Source of the DNA: an uncultured delta proteobacterium
Lineage (GTDB): Bacteria > Desulfobacterota > WTBG01 > CAIYCZ01
Reading direction: 5' to 3'
Length of the DNA stretch: 64,000 nucleotides
Assembly: GCA_963803975.1 (NCBI GenBank)
Contig: CAWDOY010000047.1
Span: 64,001 to 128,000, forward strand
The notes beneath the pieces are model-generated. The model had not been told where the DNA came from and did no database searches. It worked only from the letters and a program-made list of their open reading frames with translations. This document shows, one piece after another, positions 27,259 to 44,025 of this stretch; position 1 is the stretch's first letter, and every line of letters starts with the position of its first letter. The position numbers and the translations under genes are program-made.

Positions 27259-28663
27259 ATGCCGCAAACACTGCAGTGCAGAACCATAAGCAGAACACGC
27301 ATCAGACCAGAAGCAAACATCACGGGGACTCTCAGGCTGAATGCCCTTGATCACTTTGAGTCATGGTTCCTGCTTGAAGTGGTCTATTTCTATCAGCACG
27401 CCCTCGATCCCGCCCGTCTGCAGCAGTCCCTGCAGCAGGCGCTTAATGACTTCCCCATGCTGTGCGGGCAGCTCCGGGCTGCTGCTGATGGCTCCCTCTG
27501 CATAGACTACCCACGTGCAGGCGTTCAGTTTTCAGTATGCGGATGTGACGTCACTATTGAAGAAGCAAGCAAAGGATTGCATACAACGTACACGGTATAT
27601 GATTTTATTGAAAAAATTAATCCCCTGCTGTTTTCTGTTAAAAATAAGCCCCTGGCTTCATTCAAACTTACCCGGATGAAGGGCGGCGGCAGTGCCCTGG
27701 GAATTTCTGTCGCCCATGCGCTGATTGATGCATACAGCTTCTATTATTTTATACAGCACTGGTCGCGCATTCACGAGGGGCTGCCCGCCGGCACCGCCTC
27801 TGCATGACCGCAGCCTGCTTTCCGCGTATAGTGAAGCAGACAACGGTTTTTCCGGAACGGCAATAAAGTCCCCTGATACCTGCAGAGGATTCCGCCTTCT
27901 GACCTCGTGGCAGCTGCTCAAGCTCATCTCATCCTTTATCATGCAGCAGAAATCCATCGTGTGCAGTGTTCTGCATTTCAATCGGCAACAGCTCCTGGCG
28001 ATAAAAAATGCTGCGCTGCGGCTGGGGCCGGTATCGATGGGGGATGCGTTGAGCGCTCACCTGTGGCAGTTCTGCACACGGATTGCAAGAGCTGCTGAGA
28101 CTGCCGCCTCCCGCAAGCTGCTCATTCCAGCCAACATGCGGCCGCTGATACATCATCCGCAGTCCGGGCATTATGTTGGGAATGCCATTGCACATTTGGA
28201 ACTCGTATACAGTCAGGAACAGCTTGACCGGGCCGATATTGCCGCCATAGCACATCAATGCAGGAAGCAGGTTGTTGCTTTTGACCAGGGGCATATCAGG
28301 GAGCAGATGCTGTGGCTGCGGCAGCACGAGCAGGAGAAACATCTCTATAAAATTTATGCTGATATCGACCCCTATGCAGGCGACTGCATGATAAGCAATC
28401 TGTCGCGGCTGCCGGTCTATGGAGCCTGTTTTGACCGTGAACAGCCGTTTTGGGCCGCAGTACCCGCTATACCGATTCCCTGGGTATTACAGATAATGCC
28501 TGCCCCTGACGGAAGCGGAGCTGTTGATGTACACGCTCATCTTCCGCGCTCTGCCGCAGATACATTGCAGGGTGATACCTGGCGGGATGAATTATATAAA
28601 TACGGGGAAGCAGCTGATTCTGAAGCAGCGGCAAATCCTGCCGCTTTCAGCCCCGTTGATTGA
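27259..28663 (+). CDS. BAHD/'transferase'-family CoA-dependent acyltransferase, split by a +1 frameshift near 27786
   Basis: FPMLCGQL, HALIDAYS (HxxxD), PLHDRSLL, YVGNA, and SRLPVYGACFDREQP at the position of the DFGWG motif. Confidence 0.7.
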
Positions 28664-28919: not shown

Positions 28920-29771
28920 TTAATGCCCCTTATGTTCGCTCTCTTCTTCTTTGGGCTTCAGGTATTTTTTCCCGGCCATTGACATGAACGCCAAGGCAAT
29001 CATCGCCAGCCCGAACCCGTAAAAAAGTTTTTCCGCAACTCGCAATGGCGCCTTGTCAAACACCTCAGATTTATGGATGGGCCCTAAATTTAAAGCGCCT
29101 TTCCCCGGCTCATGACATTTTGCACAAACCGGCTGCTGCCGTTCCTTCGGCCCGTGATTGGCAACTTCAAAGTGACAGTCCAGGCACCGGTCAATGCGAA
29201 AATCTCCAGCCAGATTTACCTTCCCGTGGCCTTTCAGTTTTGCGACAATCGCAGAACCAATCAGCCCCGGACCCTCCACCAGTCCCTCATGACAGTTACT
29301 GCAGGTCGCAGGCACATTTTTAGGATTTATGCTGGAGCGCGGATCATCGCTGTAAAAATTATAGTGCATGGTATGGCAATCATAGCACTGCGGCGCCCTG
29401 GTGTTACCTTCCTTTAAGAGCTTCGCATGCCTGCTCATCTCATACTTTTTCAGAGCCTCCTCGTGACATTCCTCGCACTTCACATCAGCAAGCCCGCTTG
29501 CCGGGTGATCCTGCGTTGCCCCTGTATGGCATTCCACACAGGTATAGTCAAGCTTTCCGTGGATTGACTCTGAAAACAGTTTTTTATCCACATACAAATT
29601 ATGAACCGTGCCGGTGCTGTCAGTTTGAGTGAGGCTGCGGTCCTGATGGCATTCAAGGCAGTCATCTATTGACTGAGACAGCGCTGCTCCGGGACCCACT
29701 GCCGCTATCAGCAGGACCAGTAACCACAGGGAGAAGCATGTGCCGGGGACTTTTTTCATCGTCTTACTCAT
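28920..29771 (-). CDS. Membrane-anchored multiheme cytochrome c (7 CxxCH)
   Basis: Signal peptide; CLECH, CVECH, CEECH, CYDCH, CSNCH, CLDCH, CAKCH; C-terminal TM helix. Confidence 0.9.
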   Translation of the reverse strand: MSKTMKKVPGTCFSLWLLVLLIAAVGPGAALSQSIDDCLECHQDRSLTQTDSTGTVHNLYVDKKLFSESIHGKLDYTCVECHTGATQDHPASGLADVKCEECHEEALKKYEMSRHAKLLKEGNTRAPQCYDCHTMHYNFYSDDPRSSINPKNVPATCSNCHEGLVEGPGLIGSAIVAKLKGHGKVNLAGDFRIDRCLDCHFEVANHGPKERQQPVCAKCHEPGKGALNLGPIHKSEVFDKAPLRVAEKLFYGFGLAMIALAFMSMAGKKYLKPKEEESEHKGH

Positions 29772-31708
29772 TTCTTCATGGCATCATAAATATATTCAGC
29801 AATGTCCAGCGCCTTGATCGAGTCAAACACATTCTTTGCTTTCAGGCCGTCTTCCAGCATAGTGAGGCAGTAGGGACATGCTGTGGCAATCGCATCCGGC
29901 TTCGCTGCAATTGCCTGCTCGGTGCGCGCCTCATTTATTCTCGTGCCCAGGTGCTCTTCCATCCACATCCTGCCGCCGCCTGCACCGCAGCAGAAGCTCC
30001 GGTCAAGCGTTCTATCCATTTCAACCAGAGATATACCGCTGATAGAGGTGAGGAGCTTGCGCGGCTGGTCGTAGATATCATTGTACCTGCCCAGAAAACA
30101 TGAATCATGGTAACAGACGTTCATTTTACCGGGAGAGCTGTTGAGAGAAATTTTTTCTGTGTTCACAAGGTTCAATAATAACTCGGTGTGGTGCAGAACC
30201 TCAAAGTCTGTTCCATACTGGGGATACTCGTTTTTCAGTGCATTGTAACAATGGGGACATATCGTAAGGATCTTTTTAACGCCATACTGCTGGAAGACGC
30301 CGATATTATACTGGACGAGGCTGTCGTACAGATACTCATTGCCGATTCTCCGGGCAGAATCACCGCAGCATCCTTCCTCTGTTCCCAGAATCGCAAAGTT
30401 GACGCCGGCTGCCTGCAGGATTTTTACCATCGCTGTTGAGACTTTTTTATAGCGGTCATCGAAGGCGCCGGCACATCCTGCATACAGGAGGATATCCGCG
30501 GTCCCTGCCTCAGCCATGGTCTTCACGCCAAGATCTTTTGCCCAGTCACCCCGCTGGTGCCGACCGATGCCCCAGGGGTTGCTGTTGTTTTCCATATTCT
30601 TAAACACTGCCTGCACTTCTACCGGAAAATTTGATTCCACCAGCACCAGGTTGCGCCGCATCTCTATAGTTTTATCCACTGACGTGATAAAGACCGGACA
30701 CTGGAAGTGACAATTGAGGCACAGGGTACAGGACCAGATGGTATCGTGCTCGATCACGTCCCCGATTAATGCCTTCTCACTAACATCTCCATTATGGGCG
30801 GATTGCGCACCCTTCTCTTCCATGTGCGTCCGCAGATCCTGGTAGAGTTTTTTGGGTGACAGCGGTTTCTGGGTCAGATGAGCCGGGCAGTTATCCTGAC
30901 AGCGACCGCAGCGGGTACAGGCATCAAGTTGGAACAGCTGCTGACGGGTAAATTCATCAATGCGCGAGACGCCGAAGGTTTCGGCAGTTTCAAAATCCGT
31001 AATCTGGCGAAGAACCCCTGGCGGCCCGTATTTCCGCAAGAAAATATTAATAGCAGAGGTTATGATGTGAAGAAATTTGGTGTACGGTGTGCAGGCAATC
31101 AAGCCTAACACCAGGAACAGATGAATACGCCAGAGAAGTTTATGGATGGAAACCTGCGTGCCGGGTTCAGCGAAGGAGAATAAAGAGGCAAACACATACC
31201 CTGCCGGAGCCCATACGCCGGTCTCTCCGGTAATGCTCAGCCGGAGCCCCTCCACGCAGAAGCCAAGAAAAATAATCGCAAAGACCCAGATCAGGGCTAT
31301 CGCATCCTCAGCACGGGTATCGCTCAGTCGGTCAGGTCTTTGAATGTAGCGCCGGTACGCTGCAAGTCCGATCCCCAGAAGCCCCAGGCTTCCCACCGCG
31401 TCAAGAAACAGGGAAAATAGATTGCCCAGCAGCTGCGGAATCGAAAACTTGACCTGTACCGCAAGTATGATCAGAAGGGGGATAGCGCAAGCGCAGAAGA
31501 TAAAAAGATGCATGAGCCCCGGATAGAGCTCCCGCAGAATGCGTTTATGGCCGACGGCATATACAATAAAGTCCTTAAGCCTCTGTCCAACCCCCTCTAA
31601 ACGCTCATCTTTCTGCCCCATCATCCACAGGCGGACCCGTCTGATGATACCGATGGTGAAGATGGTCAGCGCAATAAGAACCCACAAGGGGTCAAGTGTT
31701 GTGAGCAT
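29768..31708 (-). CDS. Membrane Fe-S oxidoreductase (NarI-like heme b domain + 2x[4Fe-4S] + 2 CCG domains), ETF:quinone oxidoreductase type
   Basis: TM helices with His residues; CTRCGRCQDNCP, CTLCLNCHFQCP; EGCCG, CPHC, HDSC, CCGAGGG, ACPYC; follows etfBA. Confidence 0.88.
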   Translation of the reverse strand: MLTTLDPLWVLIALTIFTIGIIRRVRLWMMGQKDERLEGVGQRLKDFIVYAVGHKRILRELYPGLMHLFIFCACAIPLLIILAVQVKFSIPQLLGNLFSLFLDAVGSLGLLGIGLAAYRRYIQRPDRLSDTRAEDAIALIWVFAIIFLGFCVEGLRLSITGETGVWAPAGYVFASLFSFAEPGTQVSIHKLLWRIHLFLVLGLIACTPYTKFLHIITSAINIFLRKYGPPGVLRQITDFETAETFGVSRIDEFTRQQLFQLDACTRCGRCQDNCPAHLTQKPLSPKKLYQDLRTHMEEKGAQSAHNGDVSEKALIGDVIEHDTIWSCTLCLNCHFQCPVFITSVDKTIEMRRNLVLVESNFPVEVQAVFKNMENNSNPWGIGRHQRGDWAKDLGVKTMAEAGTADILLYAGCAGAFDDRYKKVSTAMVKILQAAGVNFAILGTEEGCCGDSARRIGNEYLYDSLVQYNIGVFQQYGVKKILTICPHCYNALKNEYPQYGTDFEVLHHTELLLNLVNTEKISLNSSPGKMNVCYHDSCFLGRYNDIYDQPRKLLTSISGISLVEMDRTLDRSFCCGAGGGRMWMEEHLGTRINEARTEQAIAAKPDAIATACPYCLTMLEDGLKAKNVFDSIKALDIAEYIYDAMKK

Positions 31709-31727
31709 GGTCCGTTAGTGTGCAAAA

Positions 31728-31767
31728 CTCGCAAACAAAAATTCCGGTCTGTCGGAATTTTTGCGAG
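31728..31767. terminator. Hairpin between etfA and the Fe-S oxidoreductase
   Basis: CTCGCAAA..AAAAATTCCG-gtctgt-CGGAATTTTTGCGAG. Confidence 0.5.
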
Positions 31768-31790
31768 AAATATATTCCTTGATAAAAATC

Positions 31791-32789
31791 CTAACCTTCC
31801 GCCTTAAGCTTTTTCATCTCCTGCGTCATGGCAGGCACTACTTTAAATAGATCATCAACAATACCGTAGTCACATTTGGAGAATATGGGTGCTTCAGCGT
31901 CCTTGTTGACGGCTACAATCACCTTGGAGGTTCCCATGCCGGCATAGTGCTGTATTGATCCAGAGATACCGCAGGCGATATACAGATTGGGCGACACCAC
32001 TTTCCCGGTCTGTCCGACCTGCTCAGCCACCGGCTTCCAGCCGGCATCAACAGCAGCACGTGATGCACCTACGGTTGCACCGATAATCTCCGCCATATCT
32101 TCAAGCAGCTTGAAGCCTGCAGCTTCCTTCATGCCGCGGCCACCGGAAACAATGACTTCCGCCTCGGTGAGATCCACTTTCGCGGCAGCAGTTTTAATCG
32201 TTTCGACAATGGTCACACGGATGTCACCGGCTGCAAGTTCTGCGGCTACCTTTTCAACTGGCGCCTTCTTGGATGCATCAGGCGGCGTTGGAATAAGTAC
32301 GTTAGGCCGAATAGAAGCCATTATTACCGGCGCATTGGGGAATCCCACATCCGCATATACTTTACCTGCATACATAGGTCTCCGCACGCAGAAATTTCCG
32401 CTGTCATCGACTTTTAGTTCAGTACAGTCAGTAGCAAGGCCGGCGTTTACTTTGGCAGCAACTTTTGCAGACAGGTCTTTGCCGACCACGGTTGCGCCAA
32501 ACAGTACCATAGAGGGCTGCTGCTTGGTGATGATATCTGCCAGTGCTTTTGCATAACCGTCTGAGGTATAATTGGCAAGCAGCTCATGCTCCACGAAATA
32601 GACCTTATCTGCTCCATAAGAAGCGCACTGGTCAGCAACGCTCTCCGGTATATTCTTACCAAGAACAACAGCACATACCTCTTCGCCCTTTTTGGCGGCA
32701 ATTGATTTAACCGCGCTTAGTATCTCAAAGGTAACCTTTCTGACTGAAGTTTCAGTCAGCTCTGCGTATACCCAAATTCCTTTTCCCAT
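31791..32789 (-). CDS. etfA: Electron transfer flavoprotein alpha subunit
   Basis: VSGGRG, GASRAAVD, QVGQTGK, YIACGISGSIQH, NKD.EAPIF. Confidence 0.95.
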   Translation of the reverse strand: MGKGIWVYAELTETSVRKVTFEILSAVKSIAAKKGEEVCAVVLGKNIPESVADQCASYGADKVYFVEHELLANYTSDGYAKALADIITKQQPSMVLFGATVVGKDLSAKVAAKVNAGLATDCTELKVDDSGNFCVRRPMYAGKVYADVGFPNAPVIMASIRPNVLIPTPPDASKKAPVEKVAAELAAGDIRVTIVETIKTAAAKVDLTEAEVIVSGGRGMKEAAGFKLLEDMAEIIGATVGASRAAVDAGWKPVAEQVGQTGKVVSPNLYIACGISGSIQHYAGMGTSKVIVAVNKDAEAPIFSKCDYGIVDDLFKVVPAMTQEMKKLKAEG

Positions 32790-32854
32790 GGTTAGATCTC
32801 CTTTATCGTTATACTTATACAAAAACGTATTGCGTTTAATTACCGGCCGTCCCG

Positions 32855-33652
32855 TTAAATTGCCTTCGCTTCTTCGCGTAACAGTTTTACCAGTTTTAAA
32901 GCTTTTGCTTCCGGCGTCTCTCCATCAATAATTTGCGCAGCTTTCCGTTGCGGCGGGGCATAGCACTTCAGCACTTTTGATTTTGCGCCTGCAGCACCGA
33001 TTTGTGCAGCATCAAGCTTCAGATCAGCGGCTTTGACTGCCTTGATTTCTTTCTTTTTTGCTTTCATAATGCCGGGAAGCGAGGCATAACGCGGCTCATT
33101 GAGACCCTTCTGACAGGTAATAACTGCTGGAAGCGGTAATTCTAAAACTTCTTCTCCACCCACGATCTGGCGGTTCACTTTCACCTTCTTTTTATCCGAA
33201 GCGACTTCAACCTTTACCACCAAATTGGCATGCGGAATATTGAGGTATTCGGCAAGTGCCACAGCCACCTGGGCTGCATCATCATCAATCGCCTGTTTGC
33301 CGCAGAAGATAATATCATATTCCATACCTTTGATCTGCTCGGCCAGGGCACGGGCCGTCGTAAAGGCATCACCGCCATCCAGGGCCGGATCATCAAGGTG
33401 CACGGCTTTATCTGCACCCATTGCCAGTGCCGTCCTGATCGATTCAACACCCCGGTCCGGACCGAGGCAGGCAATAGTTACTGTTCCCTGACCAAATTTC
33501 TCTTTCAGTTTGAGTGCTTCTTCAACCCCATACTCATCATACGGATTAATAATAAACTTAACATCCTGTAAAAGAACATCAGAACCATCCGGCTTTACTC
33601 TGATCTGTGCTTCTGTATCAGGAACCTGTTTTAAACATACAATGCTATTCAC
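32855..33652 (-). CDS. etfB: Electron transfer flavoprotein beta subunit
   Basis: CLKQVPDT, NPYDEYGVEEAL, ALAMGAD, GKQAIDDD, NEPRYASL. GTG start. Confidence 0.95.
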   Translation of the reverse strand: MNSIVCLKQVPDTEAQIRVKPDGSDVLLQDVKFIINPYDEYGVEEALKLKEKFGQGTVTIACLGPDRGVESIRTALAMGADKAVHLDDPALDGGDAFTTARALAEQIKGMEYDIIFCGKQAIDDDAAQVAVALAEYLNIPHANLVVKVEVASDKKKVKVNRQIVGGEEVLELPLPAVITCQKGLNEPRYASLPGIMKAKKKEIKAVKAADLKLDAAQIGAAGAKSKVLKCYAPPQRKAAQIIDGETPEAKALKLVKLLREEAKAI

Positions 33653-33730
33653 GTCTACCTCCCTGTTTACATTAATTTATGATCTTTAAGCTGTTATACA
33701 AGCATCATCAGACTTTTGTTCAGTATGCAG

Positions 33731-33759
33731 TATTTACTCATACGCGGCTGATGTGTCAA
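33731..33759 (-). promoter_or_regulatory. Putative sigma70 promoter of etfBA
   Basis: Minus strand TTGACA-17nt-TAAATA. Confidence 0.45.
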
Positions 33760-33879
33760 GAATTTTTTCAAGCTATCTAAGCTATCTATTCAAGAATCTC
33801 TCCCCTGCTTGAACGGTGCGTAAACTCTATGGTTCATAGACGCTCTTTGAGCATGGTGCCTGGGTTTTTATCTATGTTT

Positions 33880-34166
33880 AAAAAAGGGGGGATTGGCAGT
33901 CAATCCCATCAATCAATCTACAGCAACTAAGGGTAATTTAGAGGGGATATTTGGGGTTATTTTTTTATTGGGGTGATAGGGGATTGACTGCCAATTTTCG
34001 AACATTTTGTTCTTCTATTTCGTTTCGTATTTGTCCATTAACCCGCTCCTTTTCAGGAGGGGGGCTGGCAATCAACCCATATCAGCAAGCGTTATCAGGT
34101 TGAAAATTCTTCTCCGAGGGGATTACAGGGTCCACAATCATCAGGTTGATTGCCAGCGAATTTTTC
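33880..34166 (-). ncRNA. Candidate tandem structured small RNA(s), two homologous stem-loop units
   Basis: Perfect inverted repeats 34064-34077/34144-34157 (14 bp) and 33892-33907/33980-33995 (16 bp), homologous with compensatory changes. Shared loop motif AUCCCCUC. Sigma54 promoter directly upstream; ends in C6-U6. Confidence 0.65.
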
Positions 34167-34177
34167 ATTGAATAGAG

Positions 34178-34194
34178 AGCAAAATAAATGCCAA
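34178..34194 (-). promoter_or_regulatory. Sigma54 (-24/-12) promoter
   Basis: Minus strand TTGGCATTTATTTTGCT, GG-N10-GC consensus. Confidence 0.75.
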
Positions 34195-34301
34195 GGCGAT
34201 AAATATTGCCATGGCATTTATAATTTATTGATTATGCTTTATTATTTATATTTTCAGCGGCTTATAAGCATTCCATTTTAGCAATAAACTGGCTCCCTGA
34301 A

Positions 34302-34408
34302 TTGCCATTTTGACAAAGCCATTATAACTACAGCATTATGTGATAAACATTCTAATATGAAAATGAACACTAATATAATGCAAAAACAGCTACTTGACAT
34401 ATTGACAA
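34302..34408. promoter_or_regulatory. Two palindromic putative enhancer (UAS) sites
   Basis: TTGCCA-TTT-TGACAA at 34302-34316 and TTGACA-TAT-TGACAA at 34394-34408, about 110 and 200 bp upstream of the sigma54 site. Confidence 0.55.
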
Positions 34409-34412
34409 CCGT

Positions 34413-35831
34413 TTATTCGTTCTCTTCTTTTTCGTCTTTGCTTTTATCAAATCTGCGATAAATTGTTCTTGTTGAAATTCCTAATATTTTTGAAGCAATA
34501 TTCTTATCATCTTTGAACTGCTTAAGCGTTGCTTCCATTACCATCCTTTCAATTTCCTTGAGAGGTGTTCCTATGGGGATGCTCAGCATACGTTCTGCAA
34601 CTGATAAAACTGGGTTCTCCTGGGCAGATTTGATTATTTCCTCCGGGATATCTTCTAGTGTTATTTGATCCCCACGTGTTAATACCACAGCCCGCTCAAC
34701 AGTATTTTCCAGCTCCCGCACATTCCCGGGCCAACTATATTTAGATAAAATTTCCAACGAATCCCTGGAAATTTCAATTAATTTTTTATCATTCTTTTGA
34801 CAATACATCTGCAAAAAATGATGGGCTAACAATGGAATGTCATCTATTCTTTCTCGCAAAGGTGGTATTTTAATATTAATGACATTTAGTCTATAGTATA
34901 AATCTTCACGGAATCGTTTGTTTTCTACTGCCTCTTTCAGGAGAATATTTGTTGCAGCAATAAGCCGAACATCTGCCTTGAAAGTTTTACCCCCCCCCAG
35001 CCGTTCAAACTCACCATTCTGGAGAACCCGGAGAAGTTTAACCTGAACTGAAGGAGTTATTTCACCCACTTCATCTAAAAACAGGGTGCCGCCATGGGCA
35101 AGTTCAAATCGTCCCTCCCTCCGGGCAATGGCCCCGGTAAACGCACCGCGCTCATAACCAAACAACTCAGCCTCAAGCAGTGTTTCAGGAAGTGCTGCAC
35201 AGCTTACTTTTATAAACGGTTTATCATTTCTTGTACTCTGGTCGAGAATTGCCTGGGCAATTACTTCTTTACCAACGCCACTTTCTCCCGTTATGAGAAC
35301 CGTAGCAGAACTGGACGCTACCTGTGAGACCAGTGCCAATACTTTTCTCATAGCCTGGCTTGTCCCAATAACATTTACTCCCCGTTGAGAAGTCTTTAAC
35401 CTTTTGTTTTCGCGACGCAGAGCAGGCTTTTCTAAAGCTTCTCCAACGATATCTACAACTATTTTCCTGTTCACCGGTTTTTGCAGCAGGTAAAACAGCC
35501 CGGAAGAATGCATAAGTTCGGCAGTATCTTCGACTGTTCCATGCCCGGTTATCATTATTACCTCAATCTCCGGTGATATTGCTTTTGCTGTTCTTAAAAG
35601 CGTTACGCCATCGACTTTAGGCATCTTGAGGTCAGTTAAAACGAGGGAAATCTCATGCCTCCGGAGAATAGTAATGCCTTCCTCTCCGTCACCAGCGGTC
35701 ATAACCGTATAACCTTGTTTTTGAAGAATCTTGGTGATACTGTCTCGAATCCCCGGCTCATCATCAACCACAAGGATTGGTTTTTCGCGGGTTAAGTTTA
35801 TTTGCTCTTCAAGATTATATATTTTTTGCAA
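34413..35831 (-). CDS. Sigma54-dependent NtrC/AtoC-family response regulator
   Basis: Receiver domain (VVDDE, DLKMP), GESGVGKE, GAFTGA, FLDEV, FREDLYYRL, WPGNVRELEN, C-terminal HTH. Confidence 0.95.
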   Translation of the reverse strand: MQKIYNLEEQINLTREKPILVVDDEPGIRDSITKILQKQGYTVMTAGDGEEGITILRRHEISLVLTDLKMPKVDGVTLLRTAKAISPEIEVIMITGHGTVEDTAELMHSSGLFYLLQKPVNRKIVVDIVGEALEKPALRRENKRLKTSQRGVNVIGTSQAMRKVLALVSQVASSSATVLITGESGVGKEVIAQAILDQSTRNDKPFIKVSCAALPETLLEAELFGYERGAFTGAIARREGRFELAHGGTLFLDEVGEITPSVQVKLLRVLQNGEFERLGGGKTFKADVRLIAATNILLKEAVENKRFREDLYYRLNVINIKIPPLRERIDDIPLLAHHFLQMYCQKNDKKLIEISRDSLEILSKYSWPGNVRELENTVERAVVLTRGDQITLEDIPEEIIKSAQENPVLSVAERMLSIPIGTPLKEIERMVMEATLKQFKDDKNIASKILGISTRTIYRRFDKSKDEKEENE

Positions 35832-35876: not shown

Positions 35877-37955
35877 TTACGCGTCCCCCTTGAGAAGTTT
35901 TATCGTAAACCGTGTACCCTCTTCCCGCCTGCTTTCACAAAATATTTCACCATTATGCTCGGTAATGATATGTTTGGTAATAGAGAGACCAAGACCGGTG
36001 CCGCCGACTTTAGTGCTGAAAAAAGGGGTAAATATCTGATCGAGGTTTTCATCTGCAATGCCTTCACCGCTATCCATAAAAACAACTTCAATCCATTTAT
36101 CTGCTGAACGGGTTGCAACATCAAGAGTTCCGCCGCCCTTCATGGCCTGAATTGCATTCCGGGTAATATTGATAAACGCCCGGCGAAGCTGTTCGTAATC
36201 AATCTGAGCAGGCGGCAAATTGGGCTCAAATGATTTTTTTAAGATAACTTTATTTACACGAAATTCTTCATTTAAAAAAGAAAAAATTTCCTGGAGAAGC
36301 TGATTAATATCGCCATTGAGCAGTGTTATGGTAGGGAGCCTCGTAAACTGCAGGTATTCATCTATTACTTTGTGCAGACTGTGCAATTCAAATTTAATTA
36401 TTGAAACAAGTTCTTTTGCTTCTTTTGTGTCTACCGTACTATATGCTTCGATTTCATCTTCCAGCAGCTCTGTATTTAATGTCAGTGCGCTCAATGGATT
36501 GCGGATTTCATGCGCTACCTGGGCCGACATCTTGCCAATGATCGCCAGTCGTTCATTCTGGATATTTTCAGCCTGCAGCAGTCTTTCTTTTGTTACATCT
36601 TTTACGTACTCGACAACCCTGACTGTTTTGCCGTTTCTATCTTTAAGCGGGAATGTGTAGAGGTGAAAATAATATTTCCTGCCTCCCAGCGTTATACTGA
36701 CCCGTTCCCTGAAAGCTGGCTGACCTGTTTCAAAGGTCTCTTTCGCCGGACAACCGAGGCAGAGTTCATCCCGCTGCAAAAATACTTCATGACATGGTTT
36801 GCCGAGTAAAAAATCAAGGGGCTTATCCTGCCAGCGGCATATTGCTTCATTCGCCGTGAGCACCCGGTAATATTGATCAATAATCGTAATGCCATCAGTA
36901 ATACCGTTAAAGACTTCCTGGCTCCATTGCAGGTTCTGATTTACCTGCTGATTTTTCTTTTCCTGCCACAGCAGCCACAGTGCACCAATTAAAATAGTGC
37001 CGATGAAACTCCCCAGAAACAGGGCCAGGCGTTTAGTGCTCTCGCTCAGCTGGTCTAACACCTCATTATACGGGGTAGACACACCGATTGACCACCCTAT
37101 TTCGCGCAGCGTGATCGGAGCATAGGCAATCAATTTTTTTGTCAGCCCTTTTGCTTCCGCATGCCAGCCGCTCACATATTCGCCCGTGCCTTCCTGACCT
37201 CTGACCATCTGCTGATTAACAATTTCTTCCAGCCTGCGGGAAGAAAACTCTGGCAAACCCCGTTTAGAAGCCTCTATTGCTTCTATTCCTTCCATGCTTT
37301 TATTAGGATGGGCAATAAGGATACCCCGGTTATCCACCATCCAGGCATAACCAGTCTTCCCTGACCGTATGGGATAAATAAATTTGTTCTTTATGCTGTT
37401 GAAATCAGCGATACAGCAGATCCATGCGGCAGGCTGCTGGTCGCTATCTGCCATAGGGACGCCAATAACAAAAGAGAAAATCGCACGCGGGCTGTCGCCG
37501 ATGGTGGTTATATTCGAAATAAAGGGAACACGGTTGGCCGCTCCGTTGGCAAGCACGCCAGTAAGCCCGATCGTATCCGCTGAAAAGGAAAAAGACTGCG
37601 GGGGATAGCTATAGATAATAGTCCCGTCCGGGTTTGCGAGAAACATGCAGAGTATCTGCCCCTGGTTATTCGCCAGCACAGAGCTGAATATTTTTTCCGC
37701 TGACCGGTTATGTTCCTCAGCCGAGGACAGGATATCTGCTGCAATTCTCAGGGTTCCTTCAATATTACTGATCAGTTCCCTGATACCCCGCGCAGCTTCC
37801 CGAACCAGAAAAAGCTGCTGTTCATTGAACGCATTGGCAGCGTTCAATTCCATAATACGATAGCTGTTAAAACCAATAGCGAGTATGCCCGCAATAATAA
37901 TAATGGTGGCAATCCATATTTTAAACATGGGAAGGAACAGTTTACCCATTCTCAT
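35877..37955 (-). CDS. Sensor histidine kinase (periplasmic Cache-like + PAS + HisKA/HATPase)
   Basis: Two TMs; TGYAWMVD..G.LIAHP; PAS; VAHEIRNPL, NAIQAM, DSGEGI, FFSTK..GTGLGL. Confidence 0.93.
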   Translation of the reverse strand: MRMGKLFLPMFKIWIATIIIIAGILAIGFNSYRIMELNAANAFNEQQLFLVREAARGIRELISNIEGTLRIAADILSSAEEHNRSAEKIFSSVLANNQGQILCMFLANPDGTIIYSYPPQSFSFSADTIGLTGVLANGAANRVPFISNITTIGDSPRAIFSFVIGVPMADSDQQPAAWICCIADFNSIKNKFIYPIRSGKTGYAWMVDNRGILIAHPNKSMEGIEAIEASKRGLPEFSSRRLEEIVNQQMVRGQEGTGEYVSGWHAEAKGLTKKLIAYAPITLREIGWSIGVSTPYNEVLDQLSESTKRLALFLGSFIGTILIGALWLLWQEKKNQQVNQNLQWSQEVFNGITDGITIIDQYYRVLTANEAICRWQDKPLDFLLGKPCHEVFLQRDELCLGCPAKETFETGQPAFRERVSITLGGRKYYFHLYTFPLKDRNGKTVRVVEYVKDVTKERLLQAENIQNERLAIIGKMSAQVAHEIRNPLSALTLNTELLEDEIEAYSTVDTKEAKELVSIIKFELHSLHKVIDEYLQFTRLPTITLLNGDINQLLQEIFSFLNEEFRVNKVILKKSFEPNLPPAQIDYEQLRRAFINITRNAIQAMKGGGTLDVATRSADKWIEVVFMDSGEGIADENLDQIFTPFFSTKVGGTGLGLSITKHIITEHNGEIFCESRREEGTRFTIKLLKGDA

Positions 37956-38324: not shown

Positions 38325-40308
38325 TTATTGTCTTCCTTGAACTAAAACATCTACTACGGCAGGATCAGCAAGGGTCGTGGTGTCACCCAGATCAGAAATT
38401 TGTCCTGCAGCAATCTTTTTCAGAATTCTTCGCATAATCTTTCCGCTTCGGGTCTTGGGAAGACCGTCTGCCCACTGAATCTTATCAGGGGTTGCAATGG
38501 GCCCGATTTCCTTGCGGACATGTGCGACAAGCTCCTTTTTGAGATCATCAGACTTTTCGACACCAACGTTCAGGGTAACGTAGGCATAGATACCTTCGCC
38601 TTTAATCTCATGGGGGAACCCGACAACCGCAGCTTCCGCGACCTTGGGATGGGCAACCAGCGCGCTCTCAACCTCGGCAGTTCCCATGCGGTGACCTGAA
38701 ACATTAATAACGTCATCCAGGCGGCCCATCAGGAAGAAGTCGCCGTCCTGGTCTTTGCGGGCGCCGTCACCGGTGTAGTATCTGTTAGGGAACTGGGTAA
38801 AGTAGGTGTCTTTAAACCGCTGATGATCTCCATAAACGGTTCTCATCATGCCGGGCCATGGTTTGGTAATAGTCAGGTATCCGCCTTCATTGACATCAGC
38901 AGGGGTTCCATTTTCACGGACAATCTCCGCAGCCACGCCAAAGAACGGCCGGTTTGCAGAGCCCGGCTTAATCTTCATGGCACCGGGAATCGGGGTGATA
39001 ATAAAACCGCCGGTCTCGGTCTGCCAGTAGGTGTCAACAATCGGACATCTCCCGCCGCCGATCTTGTTGTAGTACCACATCCATGCCTCAGGATTAATCG
39101 GCTCACCGACGGTGCCCAGGATCCGCAGGCTGCTCAGGTCAATTCCCTCAACCCATTTGTCGCCCTGTGCGGCGATGGCCCGGATTGCGGTCGGTGCGGT
39201 GTAGAACTGATTGACTTTGTATTTCTCAACAATCTTCCAGAACCGTGAATAATCAGGCCAGCTTGGCACACCTTCAAACATGACGCTTGCAGCGCCGTTT
39301 GACAGCGGGCCATAGACAATATAGCTGTGTCCGGTAACCCAGCCGATGTCTGCGGTGCACCAGAAGGTATCCTCATCCTTGAGATCAAAGACATATTTCA
39401 GCGTGGTAGTCACGTACAAGAGATAGCCAGCTGTCGTATGCAGCGCACCCTTGGGCTTTCCCGTTGAACCGCTGGTATACAGGATGAACAGTGGATCTTC
39501 AGCATCCATCTCTTCAGGCTTACAGTATGACCTTGATGTCTTTTGCATTCATCTCCTCATTCCACCAGGAATCGCGACCCTCTTTCATGGCGCACTTTGA
39601 GTTGGTCCGGTTGACAACCAGACAGGAGGTAACGCTGGGACATGTTTCAAGTGCCTGGTCAGCATTAGCCTTCAGGGGGACCGACTTTCCGTTCCGGTAG
39701 GAAGCATCGCTGGTGATGAGGACTTTTGCTTCACAGTCCTGAATTCTGTCTTTCAGGGCGTCTGCACTAAAGCCGCCGAATATGATACTGTGAATTGCGC
39801 CAATGCGTGCGCAGGCAAGCATGGCAATGGGAAGCTCGGGGATCATGGGCAGATAAATGGAAACCCGGTCGCCCTTCTTGACGCCTTTCTTCTTGAGAAC
39901 ATTGGCAAATTTATTCACCTCTGTATACAGCTCCATGTACGTGTAGGTGCGGGCTTCATCGACCGGCTCACCCTGCCACATGAGGGCTGCTTTGTTCTTT
40001 CTCCAGGTTTTTATATGGCGGTCAAGGCAGTTGTAGGAGATATTTAACTTTGATCCCTTAAACCACTCAACCTTTGCTTCCTTGAAATCATAGTTGAGCA
40101 CCTTATCCCACTTCTTGAAAAATTCTATGTTTTCATTTGCCATGTCGCCCCAGAATCCATCTGGATCCTCAATTGAGCGCTTGTACATCTTGTCATACTG
40201 CTCCATGCTGTTGATGTAAGCTGTCTTCTGCAGCTCCTTAGGGACGTCAAAGACCTTCCCCAGACTTGCTAATGTTGTCATTGTTTTTTTCTCTTCTGCC
40301 ATTTCCAT
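38325..40308 (-). CDS. acs: Acetyl-CoA synthetase (AMP-forming), split by a +1 frameshift near 39531
   Basis: [58 protein letters not shown]-terminal half in ORF 39520-40308. Confidence 0.95.
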
Positions 40309-40913: not shown

Positions 40914-42407
40914 ATGCAGCCCATCGATAACAAACCCGCCCCTGGTGAAAGTGGCCACAATGGCCTTCATCCGTTAGAGGAGACGGTGCTCTCTCTCTCA
41001 ACGGGAAAACTGTATCAGCTTGAGCAGCAGGAAAAGCCCCATCTCTTTGTCATTCCCAAGATAGATGAGGTTGATGAAAAAAAGGCTGCACCTGTTGAAA
41101 CGGTCTCTCGTGATCAATTTGCCTCACTACATACTGCGATTAACGAGGCCATTGAGTTTATCAGCAACCAGATCCTTGGCAGAGAGCAGATTATCCGGCA
41201 GGCCTTTTTTGCCCTGATGACCGGTGAGCACCAGCTTCTCATAAGCCGCACGGGGATGGCCAAATCAATGCTTGCCCGTCAGATTTTTGCCTGCTTTGAT
41301 GGTGCCGTGTTATTTGAAAAACAGCTCACCAAGGATACCATGCCTGACAACCTGTTTGGAGCCTATGATATAGAGGCTATGAAGCGCGGCAAAATGATAC
41401 ACAATGTGGAAGGATCACTGGTTCTGGCCCATTTTGCCTTTCTCGATGAAATCTTTGATGCCAATGACATGCTGCTCAGATCTCTGCTGTCATTGCTCAA
41501 CGAGAAACAGCTGGTTAATGGCGAGCAAATCATCCATTCTTCTCTCCAGAGCGTCATCGCTGCAGCAAACTACATCAGGGTGACAGAAATTCTTGAAGCA
41601 GTACTCGACCGCTTTTTATATAAAAGCTATATCCCGGAAAACAAAAACCTCTACTTCCAGCACTCCATTGACACGGTGTACCAGAATAATTTCGGCACCA
41701 TCCGCATGCCCGACAAGAGACTCAGACTTAAAGACTTTACGGTGGTAAAAGAGTTAATCAAGAGCAGAGCTATCGAGATACCAAACTATATTTTGCTTCT
41801 CAAGAATCATATTCTGCGACAGTACATTGAAGAGACCAGGGAGCAGGTGCCCGACAAACGAAACTTTACCATCAGTGATAGAACAACTGCCAAGTCACAG
41901 GACCTCCTGCGGGCCTCTGCAATCCTTGACGGCCGTTCTCTGGCACAAGAGGCTGACCTTGATAATCTGCATTATATGATGTGCACGCTCGGGAGGGATG
42001 ATGAGAAGGTGCGTTTTACCAAAATCAGTTCAGCGGCACGACGTTATTTTCACCAGGACAAAGAGTTGCTGGAGAACATCTTTGACGGCTTTGGCATTTT
42101 TAACTATCTCAGGGCTTGTAAAGATCCCGAGCTGTTAAAAAGCGATGCAACCTTTAACCCCATAAAAGCACGTCTCGAGAAACTGGTTAAAAAAGAAAGC
42201 TCGGTATTAAGAGACTATCTGGATAAAATTAAAAATAAATTTATCTCCATTCCCCGGAACACCATCATTCCTGAAACCTTTGCGGTCCTGGAAGAAATCT
42301 GCGACCTGTCGCTCAAAGGTGCACGGACAAAAGAGGCACGGGAGATCATTGATGGTTTCAGGCAGGATATTTTTAACGAAAAAAAATTAATTGCTCCGGG
42401 AACGTAA
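40914..42407 (+). CDS. MoxR/RavA-like AAA+ ATPase
   Basis: ILGRE, GEHQLLISRTGMAKS (variant Walker A), NLFG, AFLDEIF, LLNEK, AVLDRFL. Confidence 0.8.
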   Translation: MQPIDNKPAPGESGHNGLHPLEETVLSLSTGKLYQLEQQEKPHLFVIPKIDEVDEKKAAPVETVSRDQFASLHTAINEAIEFISNQILGREQIIRQAFFALMTGEHQLLISRTGMAKSMLARQIFACFDGAVLFEKQLTKDTMPDNLFGAYDIEAMKRGKMIHNVEGSLVLAHFAFLDEIFDANDMLLRSLLSLLNEKQLVNGEQIIHSSLQSVIAAANYIRVTEILEAVLDRFLYKSYIPENKNLYFQHSIDTVYQNNFGTIRMPDKRLRLKDFTVVKELIKSRAIEIPNYILLLKNHILRQYIEETREQVPDKRNFTISDRTTAKSQDLLRASAILDGRSLAQEADLDNLHYMMCTLGRDDEKVRFTKISSAARRYFHQDKELLENIFDGFGIFNYLRACKDPELLKSDATFNPIKARLEKLVKKESSVLRDYLDKIKNKFISIPRNTIIPETFAVLEEICDLSLKGARTKEAREIIDGFRQDIFNEKKLIAPGT

Positions 42408-42429
42408 CCCACAGGCCTCATGTGTTTCC

Positions 42430-44025
42430 ATGCAGCACGATCCGCTTCTATCACAGCTCAGCTTTTATATCCCGTCATGGGGAACACGCAACAGCTCTAA
42501 CCTCAACTTCCCGCCTGAACTCGTCAAGATATTCTATATCGCCCGGGTCATCTTTAGCGACCATAGTACGCTCAAGATAAAAAACCAGGTTTCTCCGCTC
42601 TTCAGCAGAAGCCGGATATTTTCTTCCAGCACGCACCCATCTCTGCAGCAGCAGGCGCGACAGCAGATCACGCCCATGGACAATTCCCTGCAAATTGGCA
42701 AGATGACCCTCATGAGCGATATTTCCCGTCTTATCCCTCGTGAGCATACCATCTACACGGAAAACATTTTTTATAAAAAGCTCCTCAACCGTGAGCTCAT
42801 CAAGATCATCTACCAGGGAGCCCGCGAGGAGGCGGTATCCGTTGATACGTTTGTCGGCCGCGAGGAGGCTGAGCTCAACAGGAGTCAAAAAGTATATATT
42901 CTCTTCGACAATTCCACTTCAATGAATGGTGAGAGTTTTAACAAGATTTTTGCCGCCAAGGCTATTGCCATAGAATATCTGCGAAAAGTATCGGGGGAAT
43001 CCCCGCAGATCTATTTTCGCTCGTTTCACAGTGACGTGGGAGATGCTGTGAAGGCCCGTACCAGCGGCGAAATATACCGGCTCATCGACCATATCACACG
43101 CCTGCAGACTGGCGGCGGGCACATAACAAATATCGGCTCTGCTGTTGAGCAGGCACTGGAAGATATTCAAAAGGATCCTGAGCTGAGAGAGGCCGAAATA
43201 CTGGTGCTGACTGATGGTTTCGGCCCGGTGTCAAATGATCTGAAGGCGCGGCTGGGCAGCATCAAGCTCCATGTTATTCTTATCCCCGACCTTGATATTG
43301 CAAAAATTCTTGAGCTCTATCCGGATCGTAAAACCTGGGAAGACGGCGGCCCGCAGGGAACGCGACCCATGCCCGAGTTCTGGCAGTATTACAGCAAAGA
43401 ACCTCCCCCGCTGCGCCTTGAGGGAGATCTGTACGAGAATACTGTTCGTTCCTACGAGACAGCCGGGAAATCCGTCAAGGAGCTTAAAAGGCAGGAAATC
43501 CTCCAGGGCCTTAACCAGATTTATACCATACGGGAGCACTGTGAAAATTTTATCTTTGTGGTCATAACCGCTTTGTTTGGTGAAACCTTCAAGTGCTACG
43601 AAGAGGATATCAACAGCATGGCGGCAGCCATAGAGGAGCTTAAGCAGCTCTCAATTGAGCAGCTGACGCATAATGAAAAACTTTCCCTGCTGCAGACCCT
43701 GAATTTTATGTCAGAGCTGCTCCTGCTGGCCATGGAGCGTGCAGCAAAAAAGACCATGAAAGCACGCATCCGCGGACTGCTGCAAGTGGTGGGCATACTG
43801 AAGGCACGTCTTCTTGCCGACCCGTGGCTGTTATCCACAATCAAGGTTGCCGATGATCATGTTGATATAAAATTTACAACCACCATGTCCTCTTTTTTCA
43901 AAGATTTGCCGCTTGGTAAAGCCCTGGCCATGCTGATCAAGTTTCTCTGGCAGACATTCCGCGAATCAGCGCAGAGGTTTTTTGCCCCGTTAAGGAAATT
44001 TCACATCAGACAGGAAAAAGTCTAA
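42430..44025 (+). CDS. VWA-domain protein (ViaA-like partner)
   Basis: DISRLIPRE; MIDAS elements FDNSTSM, GGHITNI, VLTDG; follows the AAA gene. Confidence 0.75.
   Translation: MQHDPLLSQLSFYIPSWGTRNSSNLNFPPELVKIFYIARVIFSDHSTLKIKNQVSPLFSRSRIFSSSTHPSLQQQARQQITPMDNSLQIGKMTLMSDISRLIPREHTIYTENIFYKKLLNRELIKIIYQGAREEAVSVDTFVGREEAELNRSQKVYILFDNSTSMNGESFNKIFAAKAIAIEYLRKVSGESPQIYFRSFHSDVGDAVKARTSGEIYRLIDHITRLQTGGGHITNIGSAVEQALEDIQKDPELREAEILVLTDGFGPVSNDLKARLGSIKLHVILIPDLDIAKILELYPDRKTWEDGGPQGTRPMPEFWQYYSKEPPPLRLEGDLYENTVRSYETAGKSVKELKRQEILQGLNQIYTIREHCENFIFVVITALFGETFKCYEEDINSMAAAIEELKQLSIEQLTHNEKLSLLQTLNFMSELLLLAMERAAKKTMKARIRGLLQVVGILKARLLADPWLLSTIKVADDHVDIKFTTTMSSFFKDLPLGKALAMLIKFLWQTFRESAQRFFAPLRKFHIRQEKV

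Follow-up and report, generated by a model that had tools for sequence, protein, structure and literature searches.

Paralogous structured RNAs behind a conserved sigma-54 promoter upstream of etfB in an uncultured deltaproteobacterium

Between the gene for an NtrC-type response regulator and etfB, an uncultured deltaproteobacterium encodes two paralogous structured RNA modules on the minus strand, preceded by a conserved sigma-54 promoter and conserved enhancer sites. The modules belong to a real RNA family in a known kind of system, and a second family, type B, was found alongside; both are undescribed. An undescribed paralogous pair of this sort had been predicted from the window, that is, the whole 64-kb stretch of DNA analyzed; covariation, matches between the models of the two units, and occurrence in 13 of the order's 21 genomes bear the prediction out.

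Results

The locus and its neighbors

All genes of the locus are read from the minus strand, with acs, a kinase gene and the NtrC-type regulator gene upstream of the RNA, and etfB, etfA, an oxidoreductase gene and a cytochrome gene downstream. As predicted, the RNA thus lies beside a two-component system whose kinase and regulator genes are directly upstream. The features are as follows, with the protein genes assigned by domain search.

35877–37955, minus: sensor histidine kinase (dCache_1, PAS, HisKA, HATPase_c)
34413–35831, minus: NtrC-type sigma-54 enhancer-binding response regulator (REC, AAA+ with GAFTGA, Fis-type HTH)
34394–34408, minus: distal enhancer palindrome TTG(T/C/A)CA-N3-TG(G/A/T)CAA, 215 nt upstream of the sigma-54 TGG; same offset in other loci of family f1
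34302–34316, minus: proximal enhancer site, 123 nt upstream of the sigma-54 TGG; homologous sites lie mostly between −120 and −126
34178–34194, minus: sigma-54 −24/−12 promoter; upstream of unit 2 in all 13 genomes carrying unit 2
34064–34157, minus: RNA unit 1, an end-sealing stem and a variable loop with the conserved motif A(U)CCC(C/U); paralogue of unit 2
34046–34063, minus: C run and small 3′ hairpin after unit 1 (hairpin itself 34046–34059); some hairpin is kept in most homologues
33892–33995, minus: RNA unit 2, the conserved core, a 13–18 bp stem closing a 48–73 nt single-stranded loop with three to four CC(C/U)C runs
33880–33891, minus: C6U6 tail; C run conserved, U run variable
33731–33759, minus: sigma-70-like etfB promoter (TTGACA and an imperfect −10); matching site in 11 of 13 RNA-bearing genomes
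32855–33652, minus: etfB, first gene of the linked operon
28920–32822, minus: etfA, membrane FeS/CCG oxidoreductase and multihaem cytochrome c

Judged by its domain content, the membrane FeS/CCG oxidoreductase appears EMO-like; EMO itself has been described (PMC8805022). The regulator falls below the curated cut-offs of both AtoC and NtrC, scoring 414 bits against the TIGR01818 (NtrC) cut-off of 558.6. The original prediction gave etfB a sigma-70 promoter of its own, and a sigma-70-like site is indeed present at 33731–33759, where a strict promoter scan makes no call.

The acs gene (window positions 38325–40308), the sole acetyl-CoA synthetase match in the predicted protein set, is split by a frameshift near 39520–39548. 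The split is probably an assembly error or a recent lesion because genomes G001 and G003 stay in a single frame at that point; G001 changes frame elsewhere. Divergent from acs, positions 40914–44025 encode a RavA/MoxR-type AAA+ ATPase and then a protein with a VWA-like motif (recognized by eye). At the other side of the locus, two overlapping ORFs at 27259–28663 resemble a single transferase gene split by a frameshift.

Structure, strand and paralogy of the RNA modules

Each module is about 100 nt long, and a long stem seals its 5′ and 3′ ends around a C-rich loop. The unit 1 stem has 14 perfect base pairs (16 including G-U) and closes a loop of 66 nt; that of unit 2 has 16 perfect pairs and closes a loop of 72 nt. 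The stems differ at 4 of 14 aligned positions and, just as predicted, all four differences keep pairing. Folding of 33880–34166 (minus strand) gave both long stems with z = −6.0, and none of 200 shuffled sequences folded as well. Perfect inverted repeats of at least 14 bp with loops of 40–100 nt number seven in the 4.25-Mb genome, and two of these are units 1 and 2. The region, predicted to be free of ORFs, holds short ones only, none with an evident ribosome-binding site; no reading frame is conserved in it, homologous loops differing by indels of any length. Across the compared loci, no conserved canonical terminator was found after the RNA.

In the unit 2 alignment, 99.6% of 273 stem cells are paired and two-sided changes occur at 7 of 13 pairs. 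None of 500 shuffles gave covariation as high, and the value lies above all slid controls, although related sequences are not independent and inflate such counts. Over 26 loci the 338 stem cells comprise 308 Watson-Crick pairs, 29 G-U pairs, no A-C pair and one mismatch; with one locus per genome the tally is 157 Watson-Crick, 12 G-U and no A-C. The opposite strand, or DNA, would not give G-U wobbles without A-C wobbles, and therefore the element is an RNA read from the minus strand, in line with the original prediction. The GGCAG pairs at the bottom of the unit 2 stem are nearly invariant and do not covary. Covariation in unit 1 is weak (1 of 12 pairs; 69 of 500 shuffles reached as much), which is explained by a stem that hardly varies among the 14 aligned loci or within family f1 and genus g11; the divergent unit 1 forms of G007, G008, G012 and L181 were left out of this alignment.

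Loop identity to four homologues of the family is 90–99%, versus 47–63% for the spacer and flanks. The unit 2 loop is C-rich and G-poor, its core has a predicted unpaired probability of 0.60–0.91 in the 20 loci scored out of 23, and it carries three to four CC(C/U)C runs in 13 of 13 genomes, with a further C run 3′ of the stem in most loci. Between the C runs of genus g10 the sequence has changed, with run number and spacing preserved. The closed fold is predicted at −25 to −35 kcal/mol versus 0 to −10 kcal/mol for the 3′ arm with the tail (21 loci, L285 and L286 being left out). A switch between the 3′ arm and the tail was considered and rejected, the local 7-bp hairpin that they can form not being conserved.

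The paralogy of the units is evident from their covariance models: that of unit 1 finds unit 2 at 38 bits (E 2.6e-7 genome-wide), and that of unit 2 finds unit 1 at 21–24 bits in three loci. The sole loop motif common to both is the anti-Shine-Dalgarno-like A(U)CCC(C/U), in which variation between CCCC and CCUC preserves pairing to GGGG or GAGG. Other details of the original prediction hold for this genome and less widely elsewhere. Thus UUGCUG is present in both loops here but absent outside family f1; the CUCCU-GAAA-AGGAG hairpin follows unit 1, but its GAAA loop varies among the homologues that keep a hairpin; and the C run preceding the U6 tail is conserved whereas the U run is not.

Promoter, enhancers and regulator

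The sigma-54 site lies exactly where it had been predicted, and transcription from it would start near 34167. Of 33 loci examined, 32 have a called promoter, and 26 of these carry the palindrome (at most two mismatches) upstream of it, mostly 120–126 nt before the TGG; a second copy near −215 occurs in family f1. This locus has the best enhancer-plus-promoter score in its genome. A genome scan found two strong enhancer sites at this promoter only, with two weaker single-site candidates above threshold, so that the regulon is probably this locus in essence. The second-best candidate is on contig C30 near 33951 (minus), before a membrane-protein gene, and has one site at −228. A sequence in front of unit 2 in G012 that looked like a second sigma-54 promoter was discarded because its −24/−12 spacing is one base short.

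Orthologues of the regulator share the same HTH and form one clade apart from the nine paralogues of this genome in a quick tree made without bootstrap. The co-occurrence of regulator and palindrome suggests that the adjacent regulator binds the palindrome. A general search for loci related to the regulator returned mostly unrelated NtrC paralogues.

Expression, RNA-handling proteins and target search

The metatranscriptome evidence consists of assembled contigs from 4 of 17 listed runs. In lake run X12, a 295-nt contig matches 33888–34126 with four differing letters and a 57-nt unlike end; it covers unit 2, the spacer and the greater part of unit 1, and is the sole long, well-matching piece among those listed for the run. 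The contig is a weak hint of a joint transcript of the two units. A contig of run X1 covers 32900–34220 and, because it crosses the promoter, cannot separate RNA from DNA carry-over or read-through. Contigs of runs X4 and X6 do not cover the element, which proves nothing about its expression.

Searches of the 98% complete genome for Hfq (PF17209) and CsrA (PF02599) gave no matches, with positive controls. The genome encodes RNase E/G, RNase III, Rho and three KH_KhpA-B proteins.

Target prediction with the C-rich loop, which had been proposed along with the RNA pair, singled out no gene: duplex scans of 3945 start regions, predicted by a simple gene caller, gave neither an outlier nor a conserved target. 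A site in a malate dehydrogenase gene matches the seed and is not conserved in 15 genomes, and a G-rich site in an ATP-cone/NrdD-like gene is just as rich in G where a genome lacks the RNA; both were rejected. GGGGAT is hardly enriched at start regions (29 versus 21 and 16).

Distribution among genomes

The unit 2 covariance model was built from 21 sequences, to which 11 of the 13 RNA-bearing genomes contributed. Of the order's 21 genomes, 13 have a single true unit 2 locus, namely 4 of 4 in family f1 (including this genome) and 9 of 17 in family f2; in G010 and G011, which lay outside the model-building set, it was found independently at 59–61 bits. Searches of the other 21 genomes of the class yielded nothing save one 22-bit chance match, and searches outside the order in a 150-genome sample of the phylum (strict filters, 25 candidates scored per genome) yielded none. 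Matches to the exact motif outside the order are chance matches. A gapped-pattern search of metagenomes returned 94 stretches, 18 of which close a stem; 17 are true homologues, two near-duplicate pairs among them, and one lies in a coding region. The RNA is upstream of etfB in 13 of 13 genomes and in 16 of the 17 metagenome loci. Not every locus has both units: several genomes lack unit 1 or have something else in its place, and module number varies between loci.

Among the eight genomes of the order that lack unit 2, several keep parts of the arrangement. The promoter and a degenerate hairpin are retained in G004, and G019, without the RNA, retains the enhancer and sigma-54 site directly before etfB. 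In G005 and G006 the regulator-etfB order is kept and the sigma-54 site is absent. The locus was not found in G014, G015, G018 and G020, which are 79–90% complete. In two loci of genus g10 (L285, L286), a 240-nt leader containing additional shared segments that resemble hairpins separates the RNA from etfB; the sigma-70-like site there lies not after the RNA but upstream of the enhancer. In family f8 (G043, L093:2444–3847), an orthologous regulator gene is followed, with no promoter or RNA between, by a gene for a protein of 467 aa, the N-terminal part of which resembles, by eye, an AcuA-type acetyltransferase.

A second RNA family behind related regulators

The regulators of class f42 are a sister clade (96% SH-aLRT, quick tree), and there a different RNA, here called type B, comes after the enhancer and sigma-54 promoter.

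L127:3172–3296: example of type B RNA; homologues L317–L332

Type B is about 110 nt long and occurs in 15 of 17 genomes of the class. It has a 16-bp end-sealing stem with six covarying pairs, an inner hairpin, a highly conserved loop, the single-stranded stretch AACCCUCCUC, an anti-Shine-Dalgarno stretch and a U tract; six loci scanned against Rfam gave no match. Type B precedes a receiver-domain gene and acs, and moves together with both. Its U tract ends 30–70 nt before the receiver gene, and in genus g87 there is no room for a promoter belonging to that gene. A second, diverged copy in G393 (L332:1501–1614) has no evident sigma-54 site and lies about 400 nt before a 2-oxoacid:ferredoxin-oxidoreductase-like operon. 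Cross-model scores between type A, to which units 1 and 2 belong, and type B are 8–18 bits, on the right units and strand, which does not in itself prove homology.

In Myxococcota, orthologous regulators often precede the same palindrome and a gspC-like gene, the T2SSC domain being confirmed for one. At loci L159, L160, L162, L164, L304 and L305, the palindrome and a sigma-54-like site stand directly before the gspC-like gene. The orthologous regulator is possibly Nla4, whose gene in M. xanthus presumably adjoins gspC. The gene nla4 is MXAN_2516 (PMC11980068).

Comparison with known RNAs

At the gathering threshold, Rfam 15 returned two tRNAs only from the 64-kb window. With E up to 10, the best match in the RNA region reached 23.9 bits against a cut-off of 90, with no Pxr listed, and 15 homologous loci had no match, which agrees with the expectation that the pair falls in no Rfam family. 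The Pxr model RF01812, run against this genome at E up to 10, found nothing, in a search that had no positive control above the cut-off. No Pxr was found in the 40 of 50 Myxococcota loci of the nearest regulator that were scanned, many of which precede a gspC-like gene. The literature searched holds no description of the RNA pair; supplements of large motif-discovery screens, outside that search, could list it.

The locus resembles NrsZ, Pxr and Dv_sRNA2 in layout, and belongs to none of them where compared. NrsZ of Pseudomonas is likewise described downstream of a kinase and NtrC-type regulator pair, with a sigma-54 promoter and repeated similar stem-loops in one transcript; the same account has module number varying between species and processed modules acting via a conserved loop (PMC4253122). 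Its modules, however, are given there as about 44 nt with a ACAGGCAG loop (PMC4253122), whereas those here are about 100 nt with C-rich loops of 50–70 nt, and the ACAGGCAG motif is absent from the alignments of units 1 and 2. NrsZ is also described as dependent on NtrB/C, whereas here the regulator reaches 414 of the 558.6 bits of the NtrC cut-off and the kinase has a dCache domain. Pxr of Myxococcus (RF01812) shares the order kinase, regulator, sigma-54 promoter, sRNA, and its published accounts mention tandem paralogues in some species, a C-rich segment and a predicted target just downstream (PMC5568312, PMC5684412, PMC10217877, PMC11928866). As described, Pxr has three stem-loops and each paralogue has its own promoter, in contrast to the one end-sealing stem per module here.

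Dv_sRNA2 and the ncRNA downstream of DVU0653, both of Desulfovibrio vulgaris, come from a related anaerobic lineage and, according to the reports cited, are each controlled by a sigma-54 regulator whose regulon is essentially the adjacent downstream ncRNA (PMC3333781, PMC4641369). The published binding sites and HTH (PMC4641369) differ by eye from the enhancer and HTH here, and DVU0679 has GAYTGS where this regulator has GAFTGA. Judged by eye on regulator binding sites and domains, the feature is not Dv_sRNA2.

In the loop itself the likeness is to RsaE, LhrC and sX13, reported to have unpaired, often redundant C-rich motifs and not to require Hfq (PMC2790875, PMC4132741, PMC3771888); LhrC is, in addition, multicopy and under two-component-system control (PMC4132741). 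The motifs of sX13 are described as distributed over three small loops (PMC3771888), whereas all runs here lie in one large end-sealed loop. Pairing with mRNA is reported as proven for these three RNAs, whereas for the modules it is predicted, and the accounts cited name no sigma-54 control, unlike the promoter here. DseA, described as a SAM-I riboswitch RNA, is unrelated.

Discussion

Our preferred explanation, to which we give about even weight for and against, is that the modules are Hfq-independent processed sRNAs that pair, through their CC(C/U)C runs, with G-rich ribosome-binding sites, with some read-through. The kinase, which has a dCache_1 domain, would sense an extracytoplasmic ligand, for which acetate or fatty acids had been put forward speculatively at the outset, and phosphorylate the regulator, which, as the conserved sites and their spacing suggest, would bind the two enhancer sites and open the sigma-54 promoter. 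The transcript would fold into one or two end-sealed modules of about 100 nt, whose structure and strand the covariation shows, and these would probably be cut apart at the AU-rich spacer. The stem would protect the RNA without Hfq and hold the loop open; the C runs would act as redundant seeds, pairing with G-rich ribosome-binding regions of several mRNAs and so repressing translation, as in RsaE, LhrC and sX13. Some read-through would probably add etfBA-oxidoreductase mRNA, giving the promoter two outputs. Consistent with trans-acting sRNAs, in 11 of 13 genomes etfB has a promoter-like site to itself, located after the RNA; the modules have been duplicated and their number differs between loci, as in NrsZ; and the motif common to both loops is anti-Shine-Dalgarno-like, as in RsaE, LhrC and sX13. 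Such sRNAs fit less well with target scans that singled out no gene, with an RNA that stands before etfB in all 13 genomes and in 16 of 17 metagenome loci, also when the regulator gene moves, with the lack of a conserved canonical terminator, and with the best contig (X1) running through the promoter.

A possible, if rather doubtful, alternative is that the modules form the 5′ leader of a sigma-54-driven etfBA-oxidoreductase mRNA and act in cis: by loading Rho, say, or as a switch gated by a protein or a ligand, they could set how far transcription reads through, how stable the mRNA is or how well it is translated. The original prediction, in saying that the RNA need not be a leader, understated this case, because the RNA travels with etfBA, not with the regulator gene, and because in two genomes no sigma-70-like site intervenes between the RNA and etfB. 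Besides the position upstream of etfB in all 13 genomes, in G010 and G011, whose regulator gene has another location, the series of enhancer-like sequence, promoter, RNA and etfB is unbroken and no convincing sigma-70 site separates the RNA from etfB, and G019 keeps promoter and enhancer before etfB after loss of the RNA. Type B points the same way, its U tract lying 30–70 nt before a receiver gene that has no room for a promoter of its own (g87) and the RNA traveling with that gene and acs, as does the second copy in G393 before the oxidoreductase-like operon; a C-rich, G-poor loop in a genome with Rho would also suit a leader. However, in 11 of 13 genomes an internal sigma-70-like promoter 140–380 nt from the etfB start codon would bypass the leader, and proximity alone predicts linkage after one rearrangement. 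Nor is there a conserved alternative fold among the 21 loci (0 to −10 versus −25 to −35 kcal/mol), such pairing as the loop has with the etfB start region is weak (−7.5 to −15.7) and not conserved, and trans-acting RNAs would account more readily for a tandem duplication whose loops diverged.

The open loops could also titrate a C-binding protein (such as KhpA/KhpB, Rho or some repressor), although we consider such a protein decoy unlikely. CrcZ (cbrAB-crcZ), which has the gene order and sigma-54 control seen here, titrates Hfq/Crc; CsrB and GlmY likewise titrate their proteins. Four spaced C runs with a fifth after the stem, the constancy of run number and spacing in genus g10 while the letters between them change, the near-invariance of the bottom GGCAG pairs in place of covariation, the presence of Rho and three KH_KhpA-B proteins, and a search for base-pairing targets that gave none would all suit a decoy. 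Yet neither Hfq nor CsrA, the partners known for such decoys, was found in the 98% complete genome, so that titration of Hfq or CsrA, on the analogy of CrcZ, is unlikely; four or five motifs would make a small sponge, and Rho loading presumably requires less than near-identity over 20 nt. The specific form in which the RNA is a signal-induced decoy of Rho or KhpA/B, with a nuclease-resistant end-sealed loop and rut-like spaced C runs, strikes us as distinctly improbable. If true, a sigma-54 two-component system would make a decoy on demand, relieving termination or repression genome-wide, and two anaerobic lineages would independently have placed end-sealed RNAs behind an old enhancer that serves type II secretion genes in Myxococcota.

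Hardly credible at all is a feature that is no regulatory RNA, whether a DNA inverted repeat, a mobile-element scar, a G-quadruplex or a small-peptide gene. The four G tracts on the opposite strand in family f1 might suggest a quadruplex, but one of the four is broken in family f2, and this candidate was rejected as not conserved. G-U wobbles without A-C, the lack of a conserved frame and the conserved promoter and enhancer directly upstream all speak for an RNA. So does the single locus per genome: BLAST and motif scans found one in this genome, and each of the 13 genomes has one true locus, which disposes of a MITE or REP-like repeat and removes an objection, many dispersed copies, that had been foreseen at the outset.

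Almost nothing has been known so far about RNA regulation in the uncultured anaerobes of this group, without Hfq and CsrA, and uncultured hosts limit how soon the proposals above can be tested. The locus adds two new, well-bounded RNA families with their promoter, enhancer and regulator, and it appears that one regulator-enhancer pair has been rewired, serving here protein genes (gspC-like, etfB) and there one or other of two different RNAs. The two families are tied to the etfBA-oxidoreductase and acetyl-CoA synthetase genes, which are central to anaerobic acyl-CoA and acetate metabolism.
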